From: Clostridia bacterium | Lineage (GTDB): Bacteria; Bacillota; Clostridia; RGIG8785 | Assembly (NCBI GenBank): GCA_045655245.1 | Contig: JAZOOX010000014.1 | Coordinates: forward strand, 5,056-69,055 | Direction of reading: 5' to 3' | Length of the DNA: 64,000 bases | Shown here: positions 8,764 through 58,757 of the stretch, in pieces | How the letters are laid out: each line of letters opens with the position of its first letter | How positions within the stretch are numbered: position 1 is the stretch's first letter | The notes under the pieces: generated by a model | Databases searched by the model: none | What the model was told of the DNA's origin: nothing | Seen by the model: the letters and a program-made list of their open reading frames with translations, nothing else | Translations under genes and position numbers: made by a program

Positions 8764-10296
8764 ATGGACTTTTTTGCGTTTGTTTTGTATTTTGTGGCCA
8801 TGGTTGCCATCGGTGTCTATTTCTTCGTCAAGTCCAAGTCGGTTGACGAAAAAGACTACTTCTTAGGTGGCAGACAGATGGGCCCTTGGGTTACTGCCAT
8901 GAGTGCCCAGGCATCGGATATGAGTGCCTGGCTTTTGATGGGTCTGCCCGGAAGCATTTTGGCTTTCGGCTTTGGTCAGGCGTGGATCGGTATCGGTCTT
9001 GCCATCGGTACTGCTGCAAACTGGATTTTGGTTGCTAAGAGACTGCGTAAGTTCTCGAAGGCGTCGGGGGATGCCATTACCCTGCCGCAATACCTGTCCA
9101 ACCGCTTTTTAGCCCAAAGCCATGTTTTGAGCATTATCTGCGCGATTGTTTTCCTGGTCTGCTTTACCATCTACGTTGCCTCTGCTTTCGTTGCAGGTGC
9201 AGACGTGTTCACCACTCTGGTTCCTTCTTTAGAACCCATGATGGCGATGCTGATTTTTGCCGCCATTGTGATTGTGTATACCTTCCTGGGCGGTTTTAAG
9301 GCAGTTTGCTGGACCGACTTTTTCCAGGGTCTTTTGATGATTGCCGCTTTGTTGATCGTGCCGATCGTTGTCGGTCTGACCCGCAACCTGGACGTTGCGG
9401 CGCTGTCCACCGTTTATACCGGTCCTAACGGCGAGGAGTTTGCTTTCGTTGCCAACTTCTTTAACGCCAGTTGGCAGGATATCCTGTCGGGCCTGGGCTG
9501 GGGATTGGGTTACTTCGGTATGCCCCACATCATCGTTCGTTTTATGGCCATTGAAAAGCCCTCGATGGTAAAAAAATCCGCTACTGTTGCCATCATCTGG
9601 GTTGTTCTTTCCCTGGGTGCGGCTATTATGATTGCTTATCTGGGCAGAATGTTCGTTTATTCCAACGGTGTTGACCTTTCCGCTAACCTGTTGGCAAACG
9701 GCAAACAGTCCTTGGTCTTTGTTGAACTGGCAAGAGACGTCTTCCCCAAGTTCATTGCAGGCTTATTGCTTGCCGCTATTATTGCGGCGTCCATGTCCAC
9801 CGCAGACTCCCAGTTGCTGGTTGCGGCTTCGTCCTTCTCCAGTGATCTGTATAAGCCACTGATTCGCAAAAACGCTTCCAGCAAAGAAATGCTGTGGGTC
9901 AGCCGTCTGGTGGTTATTGCCATTGCTGTCGTTGCGTTTTTCATTGCCAGCAGTAAGGGGAAAGCGGCTCAGGCCATTATGGATCTGGTATCTAACGCAT
10001 GGGGCATCTTCGGTGCCGCCTTCGGTCCTGCCGTGCTCCTCTCGTTGTTTTGGAAACGGTTTACCTATAAGGGCGCCGTTGCAGGTATCATCGTCGGCGC
10101 AGTGGTTGATATGCTGTGGCTGTGGCTCCCTGTCGGCGGTGCGACTCTGACCGCTTTGACCGGCATCTACGAAATCATCCCCGGGTTTGTTTTGGGTGGT
10201 ATTGCAGCATTCGTGGTTGCGCTTTGCGATAAGAAACCGTCGGCTGAAGTCGACGCCATTTATGTCCGTGCAACCGACAACAGTGTTGACGACTAA
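8764..10296 (+). CDS. putP: sodium:solute symporter (SSS family, PutP-like)
   Basis: 510 aa, 13 TM helices, SSS-family N-terminus (YFLGGRQMGPWVTAMSAQASDMSAWLLMGLPG). Confidence 0.75.
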   Translation: MDFFAFVLYFVAMVAIGVYFFVKSKSVDEKDYFLGGRQMGPWVTAMSAQASDMSAWLLMGLPGSILAFGFGQAWIGIGLAIGTAANWILVAKRLRKFSKASGDAITLPQYLSNRFLAQSHVLSIICAIVFLVCFTIYVASAFVAGADVFTTLVPSLEPMMAMLIFAAIVIVYTFLGGFKAVCWTDFFQGLLMIAALLIVPIVVGLTRNLDVAALSTVYTGPNGEEFAFVANFFNASWQDILSGLGWGLGYFGMPHIIVRFMAIEKPSMVKKSATVAIIWVVLSLGAAIMIAYLGRMFVYSNGVDLSANLLANGKQSLVFVELARDVFPKFIAGLLLAAIIAASMSTADSQLLVAASSFSSDLYKPLIRKNASSKEMLWVSRLVVIAIAVVAFFIASSKGKAAQAIMDLVSNAWGIFGAAFGPAVLLSLFWKRFTYKGAVAGIIVGAVVDMLWLWLPVGGATLTALTGIYEIIPGFVLGGIAAFVVALCDKKPSAEVDAIYVRATDNSVDD

Positions 10297-11343: not shown

Positions 11344-11370
11344 AAAAAAGAACCCCGAAGGGTTCTTTTT
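11344..11370 (-). terminator. rho-independent terminator ending the oadB operon
   Basis: AAAAAAGAACCCCGAAGGGTTCTTTTT (symmetric). Confidence 0.8.
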
Positions 11371-11500
11371 AGGATTTAGACTTGGTGAATCGTGCCAGCA
11401 GGTACATCACGATGACCATAACGGCGGTAGCGATGAAGATGCCCAGCATGCCTTTGCCCATAATGGGGAGGGTTTGTAAAAATGCATTGACGTTTATCAT
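11369..11500 (-). CDS. 43-aa single-TM protein, possible decarboxylase gamma-subunit-like (below ORF cutoff)
   Basis: ATGA overlap with the oadB stop; MINVNAFLQTLPIMGKGMLGIFIATAVMVIVMYLLARFTKSKS; hydrophobic core then basic tail. Confidence 0.4.
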   Translation of the reverse strand: MINVNAFLQTLPIMGKGMLGIFIATAVMVIVMYLLARFTKSKS

Positions 11501-12612
11501 AACAGACCTCCTACAATATTCAGAATCAGACCCCCTGCGATAACAGAAGCAATCTGACCCGAGACGTTAACACCGACAGTATGCATCAGCAAGAAGTTCT
11601 GGGGGTCTTCGGCAAGGCCCATCTTATGCACCACGCGGGAGGACATGGGGAATGCCGAGATGCCTGCCGCACCAATCATGGGGTTTAATTTCTTGCCTTC
11701 GGGCAGGAAAATATTGATGAGTTTGGCAAACATTACGCCGCCAACGGTATCGAAGATAAAGGCGACCAGTCCCAGTCCCATAATCAGCAGGGTTTCGGGG
11801 GTTAAGAACATCTCTGCCTGCATTTTGAAGGCGATGGTGATTCCCAAGAAGAGGGTGACCAGGTTGGCGAGGACTTTTTGTGCGGTTTCGGACAAGCTAC
11901 CCAGTACACCACATTCGCGAATGAGGTTACCGAACATCAGGAAGCCGATTAAGGCAACCGATTCGGGAGAGACCAGACCGGTGATGACCGTGATAATAAT
12001 GGGGAAGAGGATGCGGGTCAGGCGGGAGACCTCTTTGGGTTGATAGGGCATCCGAATCAACCGTTCTTTGCGGGTGGTGCAAAGGCGGATGACGGGCGGC
12101 TGAATGATGGGGACCAGTGCCATGTACGAGTATGCCGCGACGGTGATGGCACCCATATAGTTTGAGCCGAAGTGGTTGGCAACGAAGATGGAGGTGGGGC
12201 CGTCTGCCGCGCCGATGATGGCGATGGAAGCGGCATCCTTCAGCTCAAAGCCAAAGAGCGACGCCAGGGACAGGGTTAAGAAGATACCGAACTGTGCGGC
12301 GGCGCCGAAGAGCATCAGTTTGGGGTTGGACAGCAAGGGCCCGAAATCGATCATAGCACCGATGCCGATGAAGAGTAACAGGGGGAAAAGTTCATTGGCG
12401 ATACCGGCATTAAAGAGTACGGTTAACGGTCCTGTTTCAGAGACGGCACCCGATAAGGGCAGGTTTGCCAGGATAGCGCCGAAGCCGATGGGCAGGAGCA
12501 GGGTGGGTTCCATATCCCGTGCGATGGCAAGGTAAATCAAGACACCGCCGATGGCCCACATTACCACCATCTGCCAGGTCAGTTCGGAAACTGCAGTTAA
12601 CAAGAATTCCAT
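11497..12612 (-). CDS. oadB: Na+-translocating decarboxylase beta subunit (OadB/GcdB/MmdB family)
   Basis: 371-aa polytopic membrane protein with conserved OadB-family blocks (..NPKLMLFGAAAQFGIF..; ..IIGAADGPTSIF..; ..GAAGISAFPMSSRVV..). Confidence 0.85.
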   Translation of the reverse strand: MEFLLTAVSELTWQMVVMWAIGGVLIYLAIARDMEPTLLLPIGFGAILANLPLSGAVSETGPLTVLFNAGIANELFPLLLFIGIGAMIDFGPLLSNPKLMLFGAAAQFGIFLTLSLASLFGFELKDAASIAIIGAADGPTSIFVANHFGSNYMGAITVAAYSYMALVPIIQPPVIRLCTTRKERLIRMPYQPKEVSRLTRILFPIIITVITGLVSPESVALIGFLMFGNLIRECGVLGSLSETAQKVLANLVTLFLGITIAFKMQAEMFLTPETLLIMGLGLVAFIFDTVGGVMFAKLINIFLPEGKKLNPMIGAAGISAFPMSSRVVHKMGLAEDPQNFLLMHTVGVNVSGQIASVIAGGLILNIVGGLL

Positions 12613-12642
12613 AGAAACATCCTTTCTTTTAAAACAGGGAAT

Positions 12643-12760
12643 AAAAAAGACCCCTACCGTCCCGTGACGGTAAAAGTCTTGTCACTTGGTGCAGAGGCGG
12701 GCAAACGCCGACTTGACGCCGTCTGCAACGGAAGGTCCGTTGACTACTCCCTTTTACTGG
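12643..12760 (-). promoter_or_regulatory. oadB 5' leader with intrinsic terminator/attenuator (minus strand)
   Basis: Minus-strand promoter (TTGATT, 17 bp, TGgTATAAT; plus coordinates 12765-12793) then a leader of about 120 nt ending in a 13-bp stem (GACUUUUACCGUC/GACGGUAGGGGUC) plus U6, 30 nt before the oadB RBS; an alternative pairing (GACGGCG) is available upstream. Confidence 0.5.
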
Positions 12761-12808
12761 GGACATTATACCACGGTTGTTTGGCAAAATCAAGCATTTT
12801 TTGTCGAA

Positions 12809-12837
12809 TTGACAAACGACGGCAGTAATGGTAAAAT
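12809..12837 (+). promoter_or_regulatory. sigma-A type promoter of folC (divergent from the oadB promoter)
   Basis: TTGACA (12809-12814), 17-bp spacer, TAAAAT (12832-12837). Confidence 0.65.
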
Positions 12838-12862: not shown

Positions 12863-14056
12863 ATGACAGGCGAAAGTGCAGTTTTAGAATTAACCAACCT
12901 GCCGAAAACGGTGGGAGCACCTACATTAGAACGGATGGTACGCATCCTGGACGCTTTGGGAAATCCCCAGGAAGGTCCCGGGGTTATCCATATTGCGGGG
13001 ACCAACGGGAAAGGCTCGGTTGCCGCTATGATTGCCGAGATGCTTCGTGCCGACGGGTACAAGGTGGGGATGTTTATTTCGCCTTACATTCACTCTTTTT
13101 ACGAACGGATACAGGTGGACGGGAAACCCATTCCTGCCGAGGTTTTGGCGCGGCTGTGGGAACGGGTACGTCCTTTGGCACCGGATGCAGTAGCCTTTGA
13201 AGCGGTGACTGCAATAGGGTTTTTGTACTTTGCCGAGGAAGCCTGCGACTATGTGGTTTTGGAAACAGGGTTGGGGGGGCGGTTTGACGCCACCAACACG
13301 GTCAAAAAGCCGCTGCTGTCGGTACTGACTCATATTGATTTGGATCACACCGAAATTTTGGGGGAAAGGATCGAACAGATCGCCGCTGAAAAGTGCGGTA
13401 TCTTAAGAAAAAACGGTGTGGCGGTTACTACGCCCTGTCAGAACCCCGATGCCTTAAAAGTGATTCAAGAACATTGTGACGCATTGGATGTGGCGTTGCA
13501 GATTGCGCCTTCTGCCGTTGTTTTGCGGGAAGAACGGGGCGTCCTTGAGCTGGAATGGGAAGGATCGGTATATTCCTTGGGGATGACCGCTTATTATCAG
13601 GCGGAAAACGCCGCCACCGCTCTTTGCGCAGGGTCCCTTTTAGGGATTTCTCCCGATGCGAAGGAACAAGGGTTGCGCCTTGCCCGTCAGCCGGGGCGGT
13701 TTGAATGGGTGACACCCGGGTTGGTGTTGGACGGTGCTCACAACCCCAACGGCATTAAAGGTTTGTGTGAGAGTCTGCGCCGTGTGACCCGCCCCCGAGA
13801 GGTCTGCGTGGTGCTGGGGATGCTTCCCGATAAGGAGCGGTTGTCCGCGCTGCCGTTATTGGCGGAAGTGGCGGAGGAGCTGATCGTTGTGCCTGTGCAT
13901 ACTCCGCGAGGGGATGACGGAAGACCGCTTTTTGAAGAGGCGCAACAATATTTTCCAAAGGTTTCTTACTGTGACTACGCCAAAAAGGCGATTTCGATGA
14001 CCGACAAGCCCGTGGTTTGTGTCTGCGGTTCGTTGTATTTATTAGGAGAAGTTTAA
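12863..14056 (+). CDS. folC: folylpolyglutamate synthase / dihydrofolate synthase
   Basis: Mur-ligase fold P-loop IHIAGTNGKGSV; RBS AAAGGAGCGG before ATG 12863; the listed ORF (12686) starts upstream of the promoter. Confidence 0.85.
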   Translation: MTGESAVLELTNLPKTVGAPTLERMVRILDALGNPQEGPGVIHIAGTNGKGSVAAMIAEMLRADGYKVGMFISPYIHSFYERIQVDGKPIPAEVLARLWERVRPLAPDAVAFEAVTAIGFLYFAEEACDYVVLETGLGGRFDATNTVKKPLLSVLTHIDLDHTEILGERIEQIAAEKCGILRKNGVAVTTPCQNPDALKVIQEHCDALDVALQIAPSAVVLREERGVLELEWEGSVYSLGMTAYYQAENAATALCAGSLLGISPDAKEQGLRLARQPGRFEWVTPGLVLDGAHNPNGIKGLCESLRRVTRPREVCVVLGMLPDKERLSALPLLAEVAEELIVVPVHTPRGDDGRPLFEEAQQYFPKVSYCDYAKKAISMTDKPVVCVCGSLYLLGEV

Positions 14057-14124: not shown

Positions 14125-14472
14125 ATGCGCGTCAGAATTGAAGTAAAAAAACGTGCGTTACTGGCGACCCTGATGGGGGAGCTGGACCATCACGCGGCGA
14201 CCAAGCTCAGGGAACGGTTTGACCGCGAACTGGCCGACCGCAAAATTAAGACGTTGGTTGTGGATCTGAATCAGGTCGGGTTTATGGACAGTTCGGGAAT
14301 CGGACTTTTGATCGGCCGCTACCGACAGATGAAGTTGTTGGGCGGGGAGATGCGGATTGTGTCTTCCGACAAAGCGGTTTCACGGATGCTTACCGTTTCG
14401 GGGATCAAGAAGCTGGTCAAGGTCTACCGCAATGTAAACGATGCCTTAAAGGAGGGTGCGGCCTGTGAATGA
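14125..14472 (+). CDS. spoIIAA: anti-sigma-F factor antagonist (STAS domain)
   Basis: STAS motif ..DLNQVGFMDSSGIGLLIGRY..; first gene of the spoIIAA-spoIIAB-sigF operon. Confidence 0.9.
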   Translation: MRVRIEVKKRALLATLMGELDHHAATKLRERFDRELADRKIKTLVVDLNQVGFMDSSGIGLLIGRYRQMKLLGGEMRIVSSDKAVSRMLTVSGIKKLVKVYRNVNDALKEGAACE

Positions 14473-14875
14473 AATGAAAGTTTCTTTTTTATCCCGTTCG
14501 GAAAATGAGGCCTTTGCCCGTACGGCTGTTGCTGCCTTTGCGGCGACTGTTGACCCGACGGTAGAACAGTTAAACGAGGTCAAGACTGCGGTTTCCGAGG
14601 CAGTGACCAACGCCATCGTCCACGGCTACGGCAACGACCGCGGCTGGGTGACGGTTGAAACCAAGCTGGACGGACGGAGGTTGATTTTAACGGTAACCGA
14701 CGAGGGGTGTGGCATTGCTGATGTTCCCCGTGCCATGGAACCTCTATATACCAGCAAACCCGAAGAAGAACGCTCGGGCATTGGGTTTACGGTGATGCAA
14801 ACCTTCACCGACCGTCTTGAGGTACAGTCGGCGGTGGGCAAGGGTACCATCGTGACCATGGAAAAGCAGTTATAA
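14465..14875 (+). CDS. spoIIAB: anti-sigma-F factor (serine kinase)
   Basis: HATPase_c motifs (..EAVTNAIVHGY..; ..DEGCGI..); GTG 14465 follows RBS AAGGAGGG and gives the N-terminus MNEMKVSFL, as in Bacillus SpoIIAB. Confidence 0.9.
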   Translation: MNEMKVSFLSRSENEAFARTAVAAFAATVDPTVEQLNEVKTAVSEAVTNAIVHGYGNDRGWVTVETKLDGRRLILTVTDEGCGIADVPRAMEPLYTSKPEEERSGIGFTVMQTFTDRLEVQSAVGKGTIVTMEKQL

Positions 14876-15556
14876 ATGGGGGCGCAGGAGTTGCGCCTGG
14901 CGCTTTTACAAGCGGCACGGTCGGGTGACCGTGAGGCGGAGGAAGCGTTTGTTTCACAAAATCTGGGTCTGGTTCACGGGTTGGTGTCCCGTTTTGCGGG
15001 GGTGCACGACCGCGAGGAACTGTTCCAAGTCGGGTGTATGGGGTTGCTCCGTGCAGTCCGACGGTTTGACTTTACATACGAAGTGGCTTTTTCCACCTAT
15101 GCCGTCCCCGTGATTTTAGGGGAGATTCGGCAGTTTCTGCGAGGCGACGGGACCGTGCATGTCAGTCGTAGTGCGCGGGAACGCGGGGCGCAGGTCGCCC
15201 GCGGGACAGAGCGGCTGACCCGTGAGTTAGGGCGTCCGCCTACCGTCTCTGAACTGGCAGAGGAGTTGGGAATGACCCCTTTTGAGGTGGCGGAAGCCGA
15301 GGCGGGGCGGCAGGTGCTCCCCTTAAGCGATTGGGAGCAAAGCCTGTCAGTGCGGGATGCCGACCCTGCGGAGCGGGTGGATCTTCGTCGTGCCCTTGCA
15401 GCTTTGCCTGAAAAGGAGCGGCAGGTGTTGGTCCTGCGGTTTTGGCGGGATTGTACGCAAGGAGATGTAGGTCAACGACTGGGTGTTTCACAGACACAGG
15501 TTTCCCGCTGGGAGCGGAGCGCAATTAAACGAATGCAAAGGATGTTGGAAGAATGA
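14876..15556 (+). CDS. sigF: sporulation sigma factor SigF
   Basis: Sigma-70 regions 2-4; directly after spoIIAB. Confidence 0.9.
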   Translation: MGAQELRLALLQAARSGDREAEEAFVSQNLGLVHGLVSRFAGVHDREELFQVGCMGLLRAVRRFDFTYEVAFSTYAVPVILGEIRQFLRGDGTVHVSRSARERGAQVARGTERLTRELGRPPTVSELAEELGMTPFEVAEAEAGRQVLPLSDWEQSLSVRDADPAERVDLRRALAALPEKERQVLVLRFWRDCTQGDVGQRLGVSQTQVSRWERSAIKRMQRMLEE

Positions 15557-55664: not shown

Positions 55665-55847
55665 ATGGCAAAACGAAAACAGGCAAGTAGTGCCGTTGCC
55701 TTTTGGGAGCGATTGTTAAACGACCCGGAGGCAGATATCAAGGACCGCTTAAAGGCGTCGGAGTTCCTGGCAAAAGCCCACAAGACTTTTGCCGAAGAGC
55801 CGCTGACCGACCGTGAGCTGAACGTGACGATCCGTGTGGTTGAATAA
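55665..55847 (+). CDS. phage terminase small-subunit-like protein
   Basis: 60 aa; RBS AAGGAGG before ATG 55665; TAATG overlap with the large-terminase start; position and size fit a small terminase, sequence alone is weak. Confidence 0.4.
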   Translation: MAKRKQASSAVAFWERLLNDPEADIKDRLKASEFLAKAHKTFAEEPLTDRELNVTIRVVE

Positions 55848-57214
55848 TGGATTTAAACCTTACCGTCACCCAAAAGCAAAAGTCCTTTCTGGATGCCACT
55901 GCTGACGAAGTGTTATACGGCGGGGCGGCAGGGGGCGGGAAGAGTTACGGACAGGTAGTGGATGCCTTGGTTTATGCCCTGCGCTACAAGGGCATCCGTC
56001 AGCTGGTGCTTCGCCGCACCTTTCCCGAACTGAAGCGGAGTTTGATTTTAACCTCTCTTGCCCTTTTTCCAAAAGGAGTCTGTCAGTACCAAAGCGCAAA
56101 CCATCGGTTTGTCTTTCAAAACGGCTCGGTCATCGAGTTTGGTTATTGTGACACGGAAGGGGATGTGACCCAGTACCAATCGGCGGAGTACGATGTTTTA
56201 CGATTTGACGAGCTGACCCACTTCACCGAGTTTCAGTACCGTTACTTAATCTCCCGTATTCGTGGCGTCAACGGCCATCCCAAACAGGTCAAGGCCACTA
56301 CCAATCCGGGGGGCATCGGGCACAGTTGGGTGAAAGAACGGTTTATCGGTCACGACGGGGAGTGGACGGCAGAGGATGGACGCACGCGAGTATTTATCCC
56401 TGCCACCGTGCGGGACAACTGTTTTTTAATGTCGTCAGACAGTGGCTACCTCGCCCGTCTGGAACAGTTGCCCGAGCAGGAAAAACGTGCCTTGCTTTAC
56501 GGGGACTGGGACTTGTACGAGGGACAAGCCTTTGGGGAGTTTCGCAACAACCCCGACGGGTATCTCTCCCGCCGCGGCAGTCACGTCATCACCCCTTTCG
56601 AGATTCCGGAACACTGGCGGCGATTCCGCAGTTTTGACTTCGGCTATGCCAAGCCTTTTGCGGTTCAATGGTGGGCGGTAGATGAGGACGGACGTGCTTA
56701 TCTTTACCGACAACTGTACGGGTCCACGGGGAAACCCAACGAGGGGAGGCGGTGGACGGTCAGTCAAATCGGTCAGGCCATTGCCCGTATCGAAGCGGAA
56801 GAAGAACGGGGACGAAATATCACGGGGATTGCCGATCCCAGTATCTGGGACACCTCCCGTGGGGAGTCGGTTGCCGAGATGCTGGAGCGGGAGGGGGTTT
56901 ACTTCGACCCCGGGGACAACGCCCGTCTGGCAGGGAAGATGCAGCTGCACTACCGACTTCAGTTTGATGAAGGGGGCTTGCCGATGCTTTATGTCTTTTC
57001 TACCTGTCGGGACTTTATCCGCACATTGCCCGGGCTGATTTATGACCGACACCGCTCCGAGGACATCGACACCAACGGCGAAGACCACGACTATGATGCC
57101 TGCCGCTACTTTTTAATGGCAAATCCCATTGGAGCAAAACGTCCACAGCCCCGCGGGCATTTCGAGACCGACCCCCTCGACCGAAAAGTATGGGTCATTG
57201 ATTTACCAAAGTAA
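55847..57214 (+). CDS. phage terminase large subunit (PBSX/XtmB-like)
   Basis: Walker A ..YGGAAGGGKSY.., about 450-aa compact terminase with C-terminal nuclease region. Confidence 0.9.
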   Translation: MDLNLTVTQKQKSFLDATADEVLYGGAAGGGKSYGQVVDALVYALRYKGIRQLVLRRTFPELKRSLILTSLALFPKGVCQYQSANHRFVFQNGSVIEFGYCDTEGDVTQYQSAEYDVLRFDELTHFTEFQYRYLISRIRGVNGHPKQVKATTNPGGIGHSWVKERFIGHDGEWTAEDGRTRVFIPATVRDNCFLMSSDSGYLARLEQLPEQEKRALLYGDWDLYEGQAFGEFRNNPDGYLSRRGSHVITPFEIPEHWRRFRSFDFGYAKPFAVQWWAVDEDGRAYLYRQLYGSTGKPNEGRRWTVSQIGQAIARIEAEEERGRNITGIADPSIWDTSRGESVAEMLEREGVYFDPGDNARLAGKMQLHYRLQFDEGGLPMLYVFSTCRDFIRTLPGLIYDRHRSEDIDTNGEDHDYDACRYFLMANPIGAKRPQPRGHFETDPLDRKVWVIDLPK

Positions 57215-57233
57215 TGAAGATAGGAGAAGAAAA

Positions 57234-58757
57234 ATGGAAGAATTTTTCAGAGAAGTGCAACGGGCGTTTAATACTTACGTTGCCGAAAAAGCCGCCATTG
57301 ACAGTGAACTGGTAGATGGTGAGGAATGGTTTAATGATCGTTGTTTTGACGGCGGTCGGGAAGCGGATGGGAGTGTTCGCGGTGCAGGCGGATATGTGTA
57401 TAACATTGTTGCCAACAAGCATGCCGATGCCATGGACCAGATGCCCGCGCCCCTCTTTTTGCCCCGTGAGCAAGAGGACACGATTGCGGCTGAGGAAGCC
57501 TCGCAGGTGTTACCGGTAGTACTGGCACGATGCGGGTTTGAACGCACTTATTCCGACGGCTGGTGGAACAAGCTAAAGCATGGCACTGCCGCCTATGGAG
57601 TTTTTTGGGACAATGCTAAATCGGATATCTGCATTCGTGAGGTGGACCTGCTTAACATCTTTTGGGAACCTGCAGTAGAGGACATCCAGGACAGCCGATT
57701 TTTGTTTATCACTCGTGTGCTGAGCCGTCAGCAGATGGGGGAACTGTACCCCCAACTGTCGCCTGCCGACTATGCCGCTCCCATCAACCTGCGGAGCTAC
57801 GAGCATCGCTTTGACCCCGAACGGGTTTTGGTGGTGGATTGCTACTACAAAGACCGCGGAGTACATCTTTTAAAGTTCTGCGGGGACAAAATCCTGTACC
57901 ACTCTAAAGAGGACAAGCGGTTAAATCGCCGCGGCCTCTATCATCACGGACAGTATCCCATCGTCTTTGACCGCCTGATTGCCAAGCGGGGGACACCTCA
58001 GGGTGCAGGGTTTATCTCTCTTTCCCGCGGGGCGCAGGAGTACATTGATCGCCTGGACAGTTTGCTGCTTCAGAACGCCTTGGTGTCGGGACGGCAACGC
58101 TGGTTTATCAAAGACAACGGCGGCGTGAACGAACAGGAGTTTTTAAACTTTGAAAATGATTTGATTCATGTTGCGGGAAGTCTGGAAGAAACGCACATCC
58201 GTCCCTTCCAGGCAACGGCACTGCCCTCCTATGTGCAGTATTTGCGGGAACACAAGATTTCCGAATTGAAGGAGATTTGCGGCAACCGCGACTTCCAGCA
58301 GGGCGCTACCGCCCAGGGGGTTACTGCTTATTCTGCCATTGCCGCCTTACAGGAAGCGGGGAACAAGCTCAGTCGGGATATGATTGCCGAGAGCTATGAT
58401 GCGTTCCGACAGATCATGCGGCTCTGCCTTTCTTTGGTGGTCCAGTTTTATGACGAGGCGCGGGTTTTCCGTGTAACGGGGGACCAATTCCTAAGCTTTT
58501 CTGCCAAGTCACTGGTACGGGACGGAAAGGAAGTGGAACTGGACATTGAAGTACAGGCACAGAAGCAGAACCCCGTTACCCGCGAAGGACAAAACCAATT
58601 GCTGATGGAACTCTATCGGCTGGGGGTATTCCGCCCCGAGAATGCAACGGCCGCTAAAGTACTGGTCTCCCAGATGGACTTTAACGGGCGTGAGGGTCTG
58701 CTTTCGGCGCTGATTCGTGCCGAGCAGGGCTACCGCAACGAGGAGGCACAGGCATGA
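57234..58757 (+). CDS. phage portal protein
   Basis: About 507 aa directly after the terminase; RBS AGGAGAAG before ATG 57234; size and position fit a portal. Confidence 0.75.
   Translation: MEEFFREVQRAFNTYVAEKAAIDSELVDGEEWFNDRCFDGGREADGSVRGAGGYVYNIVANKHADAMDQMPAPLFLPREQEDTIAAEEASQVLPVVLARCGFERTYSDGWWNKLKHGTAAYGVFWDNAKSDICIREVDLLNIFWEPAVEDIQDSRFLFITRVLSRQQMGELYPQLSPADYAAPINLRSYEHRFDPERVLVVDCYYKDRGVHLLKFCGDKILYHSKEDKRLNRRGLYHHGQYPIVFDRLIAKRGTPQGAGFISLSRGAQEYIDRLDSLLLQNALVSGRQRWFIKDNGGVNEQEFLNFENDLIHVAGSLEETHIRPFQATALPSYVQYLREHKISELKEICGNRDFQQGATAQGVTAYSAIAALQEAGNKLSRDMIAESYDAFRQIMRLCLSLVVQFYDEARVFRVTGDQFLSFSAKSLVRDGKEVELDIEVQAQKQNPVTREGQNQLLMELYRLGVFRPENATAAKVLVSQMDFNGREGLLSALIRAEQGYRNEEAQA

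Follow-up and report, generated by a model that had tools for sequence, protein, structure and literature searches.

The locus examined here raises the question of which RNA precedes a gene for the beta subunit of a Na+-translocating decarboxylase, oadB, and what this RNA might sense in front of such a gene. The window, a stretch of 64,000 nucleotides (nt) of contig JAZOOX010000014.1 from a gut Clostridia bacterium of the Oscillospirales type, carries oadB on its minus strand, behind a leader of about 145 nt and in front of an open reading frame (ORF) of only 43 amino acids (aa). A first-pass annotation, made from the letters of the window, had pointed to a minus-strand promoter TTGATT-17-TGgTATAAT, to a 7-bp hairpin CAACGGA/UCCGUUG and to a strong terminator with a 13-bp stem and U6 shortly before the oadB ribosome-binding site, and had suggested a transcription-attenuating riboswitch of a cation-sensing kind. 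All three elements are present (Table 1), with the hairpin at 12742..12726 and helix P2 as its core. We consider the leader to be an ON riboswitch that acts on transcription and belongs to the yybP-ykoY (Mn2+) class, in a compact form with a three-way junction, with a probability of about 0.8.

Conservation and covariation of the oadB leader

The leader of oadB is a real structured RNA that is conserved. Loci encoding close relatives of OadB were collected for comparison (80 loci, 72-83% identity, all from Oscillospirales-type genomes), and 41 of these orthologous loci have the motif conserved upstream of oadB and on its strand. The conserved block consists of AAAAGGGAGUAG, a hairpin, GCGUCAAUACGG, CCCGC, AUUAAA and GCAAGAC-UUUUAYC, in this order, followed by the terminator. 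A covariance model, R1, was made with a seed of nine sequences that was structured by hand and that included the window leader. R1 gave 42 full-length matches in the window and the 80 loci together, all on the oadB strand, and exactly one of these lies in the window, where the score of 92.1 bits is that of a seed member.

Standard pairs are formed by 90.6% of the cells in the R1 alignment, as compared to 73% for column shuffles and 38-49% when the 3' partners were slid by 1-3 columns. The covariation score of the same alignment is 0.53, against 0.07-0.11 with slid partners. Compensatory changes were identified in 21 of the 28 pairs of the oadB set and every helix (P1.1, P1.2, P2, P3.1 and P3.2) covaries. 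For P1.1 the number of pairs with compensatory changes is six out of eight in the oadB set and seven out of eight in the set of members that precede other genes, which is described below. RNAalifold proposed an alternative in which GGGAGU pairs with ACUUUU; this was rejected since its columns never vary, which makes a covariation check impossible, whereas the modelled P1.1 does covary. Folding of the window leader was also compared with shuffled sequences (z = -3.8, none of 200 shuffles equalling it), where the terminator accounts for most of the effect.

Loops and linker are conserved as well. The two sides of loop L1, GGAGUA and (A/G)AGA, and the U-C-A and closing C of the L3 bulge are kept in 43-44 of the 44 oadB-linked members. 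The pair that adjoins L3, C12718-G12698 in the window, is CG in 39 of 39 scored cells of the oadB set and in 50 of 50 of the non-oadB set. The linker at the site of helix P4 has the consensus AU(U/G)AAA (UNAAA) among oadB-linked members, with U in 41 and the three A in 40, 42 and 39 of the 44.

Variants of this arrangement occur in the same orthologous context. Five oadB-linked relatives (L035, L045, L047, L051 and L063, with aptamers at about 2700-2940) have a P4-like hairpin between P3 and P1.2. Judged by sequence, these seem to be four-way-junction forms, in which case P4 would have been lost or gained repeatedly and the hairpin would form a bridge between the canonical four-way junction and the compact form. 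One further oadB-linked relative, L032 (2858..3000), lacks a terminator, and the sequence after AGACUUUUAU continues directly to the ribosome-binding site. This suggests that translation, and not transcription, is controlled by that copy. Another relative, L002 (1121..4116), carries the same riboswitch 1.8 kb upstream of oadB; the order there is a PiT-family transporter gene (Pfam PHO4), a DUF47/PhoU_div gene, oadB and the small ORF, and it looks like a four-gene operon under control of the predicted riboswitch.

Relation to known riboswitches

Rfam 15 gave no match on the window leader at E<=10 and none anywhere in the window at the gathering score. The first-pass annotation had named the lack of an Rfam match, combined with a leader that is not conserved in orthologous oadB loci, as what would speak against a riboswitch; the former was found and the latter was not, as the 41 of 80 loci show. 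A permissive Rfam scan of nine oadB-linked relatives gave repeated sub-threshold matches of 27-34 bits with RF02617 (SSRC10, threshold 56 bits), each exactly on the motif, and RF00080 (Manganese or yybP-ykoY, threshold 45 bits) gave weak co-located matches on two relatives, with 8.5 and 13.5 bits. A wholly new riboswitch class had been an early idea after the covariation result, and was dropped once the sub-threshold SSRC10 matches led to the mgtA riboswitch of Streptococcus pneumoniae.

The leader of S. pneumoniae mgtA, a gene for a PII-type ATPase, was described as a yybP-ykoY riboswitch with a three-way junction by Martin et al. 2019 (PMC6649816). In place of helix P4 this RNA has an invariant UNAAA, and it is succeeded by a terminator; L1 is conserved on its 5' side and has an invariant AGA on its 3' side, the L3 bulge contains an invariant metal-coordinating C and A, and the C-G pair adjoining L3 receives an A-minor contact from L1 (PMC6649816). 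The mgtA riboswitch is activated for read-through by Mn2+, both in vitro and in vivo, whereas Ca2+, although bound more tightly, is a poor activator (PMC6649816). The window leader resembles this riboswitch (SN44) in having P1.1, L1, P1.2, P2 and P3 with L3 but no P4, in the sequences of L1 and L3, and in a terminator that overlaps P1.1, the geometry of an ON switch. It differs in its host, which is a gut Oscillospirales and not a Streptococcus, in its target, which is oadB with the micro-ORF and not a P-type ATPase gene, in its linker, CCAAG versus UNAAA, and in that it has no SSRC10 match.

SSRC10, a transcript of 113 nt from S. pyogenes, is made from a promoter of its own, ends at its own terminator and immediately precedes a 'putative calcium transporter' (PMC3675131). 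It appears to be the S. pyogenes counterpart of the mgtA riboswitch, and what Rfam describes as 'SSRC10, Streptococcus sRNA 10', a small RNA (sRNA), appears to comprise a three-way-junction yybP-ykoY riboswitch and the terminator behind it, in front of genes for P-type ATPases. The canonical yybP-ykoY riboswitches (RF00080; L. lactis yoaB, B. subtilis yybP and ykoY, E. coli mntP and alx) share with the window leader the metal-site loops L1 and L3 and the coaxial P1 and P3 arms. Read-through is activated by Mn2+ in Gram-positives, and MntP, TerC and P-type ATPases are among the targets (PMC8632737). The difference lies in the four-way junction with its P4 helix, and the 177-position RF00080 model of that junction fits the compact form poorly.

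Metagenome contigs were scanned with a pattern for the three-way junction, which identified at least 120 loci, and the downstream genes were named by tblastn using Pfam-checked representatives. R1 gave a full-length match in each of the 100 pattern loci searched, with 27-86 bits. Among the 120 matches listed, the most frequent target was a CaCA-type exchanger gene (Na_Ca_ex, 45), next to genes for PII-type P-type ATPases (43), OadB (11), MntP (4), TerC (1) and other products (8); in 8 cases the contig ended too soon. The signature bases of L1 and L3 are identical in the ATPase- and CaCA-linked members, with several of them fixed for these loci by the pattern used to fetch them. Three ATPase-linked loci (L092 3884..3994, L111 4050..4155 and L133 3268..3389) score above the SSRC10 threshold, with 63-73 bits, and such ATPase-gene leaders fall into one covariance-model family with the window leader. 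The RF00080 threshold was reached by none of the 13 metagenome loci scanned. In several CaCA-linked loci (e.g. L088, L101, L112 and L120, of L081-L200) only complete ORFs of 90-120 aa with Na_Ca_ex similarity were seen directly behind the riboswitch; they may reflect exchangers of half size, frameshifts or errors of a simple ORF caller.

A second covariance model, R2, was made with 52 members found upstream of CaCA, ATPase, MntP or TerC genes only, with the window and all oadB leaders left out. Its seed set covaries alone, with 89.6% of the cells paired (slid controls of both sets together, 33-49%) and compensatory changes in 23 of the 28 pairs. R2 matched the window at 12758..12668, at full length, with 72.5 bits and an E-value of 1.6e-17; the sole other match in the window, of 12 bits and E 0.62, is at noise level. 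The match of R2 with the leader indicates that the latter belongs to the three-way-junction branch of yybP-ykoY and that it escapes the curated models. As far as sequence can tell, it is a riboswitch of a known class and in a form already characterised in Streptococcus, in front of an unusual target gene. The earlier suggestion of a cation-sensing riboswitch with an attenuator holds. We found no paper in the literature library searched that links yybP-ykoY with oadB, although an earlier mention may exist.

Switching, signal and competing explanations

The switch is predicted to be formed by P1.1 and the terminator. In the window, GUAAAAG (12757..12751) pairs with CUUUUAC (12676..12670) to form P1.1, and the 3' strand of this helix (12676..12669) is contained in the 5' arm of the terminator. 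Helix and terminator share sequence in this way in 39 of 41 oadB-linked members, where the terminator 5' arm covers the whole 3' strand of P1.1, starting at the GAC of the 3' side of L1. The 5' strand of P1.1 is therefore the conserved competitor of the terminator, and not the segment GACGGCG that the first-pass annotation had proposed as anti-terminator, which lies in P3.1 and covaries with its own partner. The terminator itself has an energy of -18.1 kcal/mol, and the scanner counted 15 pairs over 12680..12647. The leader has energies of -39.1 kcal/mol with the terminator formed and -27.2 kcal/mol with the aptamer closed, with a minimum free energy of -45.2 kcal/mol. Since the terminator state is more stable than the closed aptamer, the default state would be OFF, i.e. 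termination.

The promoter scan gave the oadB promoter a score of 10/12 with the extended -10 TG, and the predicted transcription start, at about 12758-12760, coincides with the first base of the aptamer, whose 5' end was placed by both covariance models at 12758, 7 nt past the -10 element. Transcription would thus start at about 12758 and the RNA would fold into P1.1, L1, P1.2, P2 and P3 with L3, with a short linker at the site of P4. When abundant, a divalent cation would bridge L1 and L3, dock both arms and hold P1.1 closed. This cation would most likely be Mn2+, with Ca2+ also binding relatives in vitro. Closed P1.1 would block the terminator, because its 3' strand CUUUUAC is part of the terminator 5' arm, and allow read-through into oadB and the 43-aa gene; with the ion absent the far more stable terminator would form and the transcript would stop at U6. 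By analogy with the mgtA riboswitch of S. pneumoniae, Mn2+ is most likely the ligand and read-through the response.

Table 1. Features of the oadB locus in the window. Coordinates are those of the window; sequences are given 5' to 3' on the strand indicated.
Feature	Coordinates	Strand	Remarks
oadB promoter, sigma-70-type	12793..12765	-	-35 TTGATT 12793..12788, 17-nt spacer, extended -10 TGgTATAAT 12773..12765
Three-way-junction yybP-ykoY-type aptamer (predicted)	12758..12668	-	full-length covariance-model match
P1.1 5' strand (A)GUAAAAG	12758..12751	-	pairs with terminator-arm strand; putative anti-terminator
L1 loop, 5' side GGAGUA	12750..12745	-	five of six positions invariant, sixth G in 43/44
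P1.2	12744..12741 with 12684..12681	-	GUCA with UGAC; 4/4 pairs covary
P2 hairpin CGGA-CCU-UCCG	12739..12729	-	first C-G pair invariant; 3/4 pairs covary
P3 arm	12726..12691	-	P3.1 lower GCAGA/UCUGC; P3.1 upper GGCG/CGCC with invariant C-G; P3.2 hairpin GGC-GUUU-GCC
L3 bulge UCAAGUC	12716..12710	-	U 43/44, C 44/44, A 44/44, closing C 44/44 of oadB-linked members
J3/1 linker ACCAAG	12690..12685	-	stands in place of helix P4
L1 loop, 3' side AAGA	12680..12677	-	AGA near-invariant, 43-44/44
Intrinsic terminator	12678..12643	-	5' arm 12678..12666, loop ACGG, 3' arm 12661..12649, U6 12648..12643
Ribosome-binding site GAAAGGA	12626..12620	-	7 nt 5' of oadB ATG; read from sequence
oadB, beta subunit of Na+-translocating decarboxylase	12612..11497	-	371 aa; ATG at 12612
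43-aa ORF, single membrane helix	11500..11369	-	overlaps oadB stop codon
Second terminator	11370..11345	-	closes two-gene operon; 11-bp stem then U run

Several points weigh against assignment of the leader to the yybP-ykoY class. About half of the orthologous oadB loci are without the riboswitch, and a second conserved leader was looked for in the 39 motif-less loci and none was found. Neither RF02617 nor RF00080 gave a match on the window leader at E<=10, and membership of the family is supported by custom models and by features described in the literature. Within the family the window copy is somewhat unusual: its linker has C where U is found in 41 of 44 members and G where A is found in 39, and one position of L3 is U where 41 of the 44 have A, so the window copy may be a weaker or altered sensor. 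Moreover, oadB is not a known gene of Mn2+ homeostasis. Finally, Ca2+ is bound more tightly than Mn2+ by the mgtA aptamer in vitro (PMC6649816).

The last point also bears on the signal. With the same RNA class and the same ON mechanism, the physiological signal could be Ca2+ and the regulon one of Ca2+ efflux, composed of Na+/Ca2+ exchangers, P-type ATPases of the Ca2+ type and a Na+ pump to drive the exchanger. Among the 120 matches listed, the targets are mostly Na_Ca_ex (45) and PII-type ATPase (43) genes, as compared to four for MntP and one for TerC, and a Na+ pump would naturally suit a Na+/Ca2+ exchanger. CaCA exchangers and PII-type ATPases can, however, also move Mn2+, and the few MntP and TerC targets are Mn2+ exporters. 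Given further that only Mn2+ activated the mgtA riboswitch in vivo, in S. pneumoniae as well as in B. subtilis reporters, and that Mn2+ was far better in activating read-through in vitro (PMC6649816), we regard Ca2+ as an unlikely signal, though one to be kept in view as most of the targets are transporters of the Ca2+ type.

A Na+- or Li+-responsive family, which had been thought of in the first-pass annotation, did not hold: neither DUF1646 nor nhaA-I gave a match on the window at E<=10 or on nine relatives at E<=1, the fold is a three-way junction and by homology Mn2+ is the expected ligand, with Ca2+ also bound in vitro. This rejects membership of Na+-I (DUF1646) as well as of Li+-I/Na+-II (nhaA-I). 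Na+-I riboswitches do occur on oxaloacetate decarboxylase genes, and resemble the window leader as cation-sensing ON switches with a terminator, linked in Clostridia to genes of the same Na+-pumping decarboxylase, but the DUF1646 and nhaA-I motifs have two hairpins (PMC9337991), an unrelated fold, and Na+-I differs in its ligand and shows no Rfam similarity. The oadB-linked sub-branch might instead have switched its ion specificity to Na+, as rare nhaA-I variants did from Li+ to Na+. Precedents exist for a change of specificity that leaves the fold intact (PMC9646797), the gene under control codes for a subunit of a Na+ pump, and the first base on the 3' side of L1, mostly A in the oadB set, is mostly G among the ATPase- and CaCA-linked members. 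Such a switch is nevertheless very unlikely, because all metal-contacting positions of L1 and L3 are identical in oadB-, ATPase-, CaCA-, MntP- and TerC-linked members; the dissimilarity to the DUF1646 and nhaA-I models and the locus L002, in which this riboswitch stands in front of genes for a PiT phosphate/metal transporter and a DUF47 protein and then oadB, argue against it too.

The conserved RNA could also be chiefly a short trans-acting sRNA, which is how Rfam files SSRC10, or a protein-dependent attenuator, rather than a direct sensor of ions. A terminated SSRC10 transcript of 113 nt was seen on Northern blots of S. pyogenes (PMC3675131), and as the terminator state is strongly favoured in the window, short transcripts should accumulate there. 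This is hard to reconcile with an RNA that is always directly upstream of a cation-transport gene and on the same strand, with the overlap of P1.1 and terminator in 39 of 41 members, and with a streptococcal homologue that, in transcription from purified components, responds directly to Mn2+ (PMC6649816). We consider a main role as sRNA or protein-dependent attenuator extremely improbable, and retain an ON riboswitch of the yybP-ykoY class with Mn2+ as its most likely ligand.

OadB, the micro-ORF and the regulated genes

The oadB product matches Pfam OAD_beta at 1e-150 and the Salmonella OadB structure (PDB 6IVA chain A) at 3.3e-94. The alignment with this structure shows that equivalents of D203, Y229, N373, G377, S382 and R389 are all kept; we take these to be the Na+-site and catalytic residues in Klebsiella/Salmonella OadB numbering. 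The 20 window ORFs scanned for carboxyltransferase and biotin-carrier domains (13 of at least 440 aa and 7 of 150-185 aa) had neither, and no credible biotinylation motif was found in the window, in line with the stand-alone pair of oadB and micro-ORF noted earlier. Clustering of all flanking ORFs of the 80 oadB loci identified no recurrent neighbour gene, so oadB and the small ORF behave as a free-standing two-gene unit.

In about 66 of the 80 loci oadB has behind it a small single-helix ORF homologous to the 43-aa ORF; the remaining loci are without one or run off the contig. This ORF is usually 40-56 aa long with the conserved core LPxMGKGMLGIFIVTxVII. A few homologues have long N- or C-terminal extensions, such as those in L036 (119 aa) and L050 (101 aa). 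The longer homologues give a weak N-terminal OAD_gamma match in Pfam (E 7.6e-4, below the cut-off), a likeness that concerns the N-terminal helix of OadG only, and a PDB profile search with the micro-ORF gave no match. The micro-ORF is gamma-like in the sense of a weak resemblance to that helix. The C-terminal tail of OadG binds the alpha subunit. At 43 aa the ORF falls far short of a typical OadG, with room for the helix but none for a C-terminal tail.

The surroundings of the operon were also inspected. Divergent from oadB lies a folC-like gene of the Mur-ligase family (12863..14056, plus strand, ATG at 12863), with a promoter at 12809..12837 (TTGACA, 17 nt, TAAAAT with TG; 11/12) that stands back-to-back with the oadB promoter. 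The ORF start listed for this gene, 12686, is an artefact that would overlap the riboswitch on the opposite strand. A gene of the sodium:solute symporter family (8764..10296, plus strand, Pfam SSF 5e-92) lies about 1 kb past the end of the oadB operon, convergent with it, which places a Na+-dependent transporter near the Na+-pump subunit. Between 10352 and 11342 the minus strand encodes a SleB/CwlJ-like cell-wall hydrolase (Pfam Hydrolase_2), followed by an overlapping ORF of 175 aa without Pfam match. By eye we take these two to resemble cwlJ-gerQ and the genes at 14125..15556 to resemble spoIIAA-spoIIAB-sigF, and a spore-forming host is probable. A prophage or phage remnant at 55847..58757 (plus strand), towards the right end of the window, is marked by Pfam matches to the large subunit of a phage terminase and to a P22-like portal protein.

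Why a Mn2+-type riboswitch should precede oadB can be answered by speculation at present. More Na+ pumping might drive, or offset, Na+-coupled export of Mn2+ or Ca2+ by CaCA-type exchangers; equally speculatively, the pair of OadB and micro-ORF might itself act in cation export. Put together, Oscillospirales including Faecalibacterium might have brought an orphan OadB and a helix-only gamma-like peptide into a riboswitch-controlled regulon for Mn2+/Ca2+ detoxification, either as a transporter without alpha subunit or as a Na+ pump that powers or offsets CaCA export, a proposal that we make tentatively and consider doubtful. If true, it would constitute a previously unrecognised link between sensing of divalent metals and the sodium cycle, and the three-way-junction branch would be widespread in gut Clostridia and yet invisible to the Mn2+ model of Rfam.

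A leader without Rfam match has become a testable metal-sensing riboswitch. It also points to a gap in annotation, as RF00080 stays below threshold on every three-way-junction copy tested and the streptococcal members are filed as the sRNA SSRC10. The beta subunit of a Na+ pump is an unexpected target within the riboswitch family that also precedes genes for CaCA exchangers, P-type ATPases, MntP and TerC, and suggests that sodium cycling is coupled to efflux of Mn2+ or Ca2+ in abundant gut anaerobes, or that the orphan OadB has a role in transport apart from decarboxylation.

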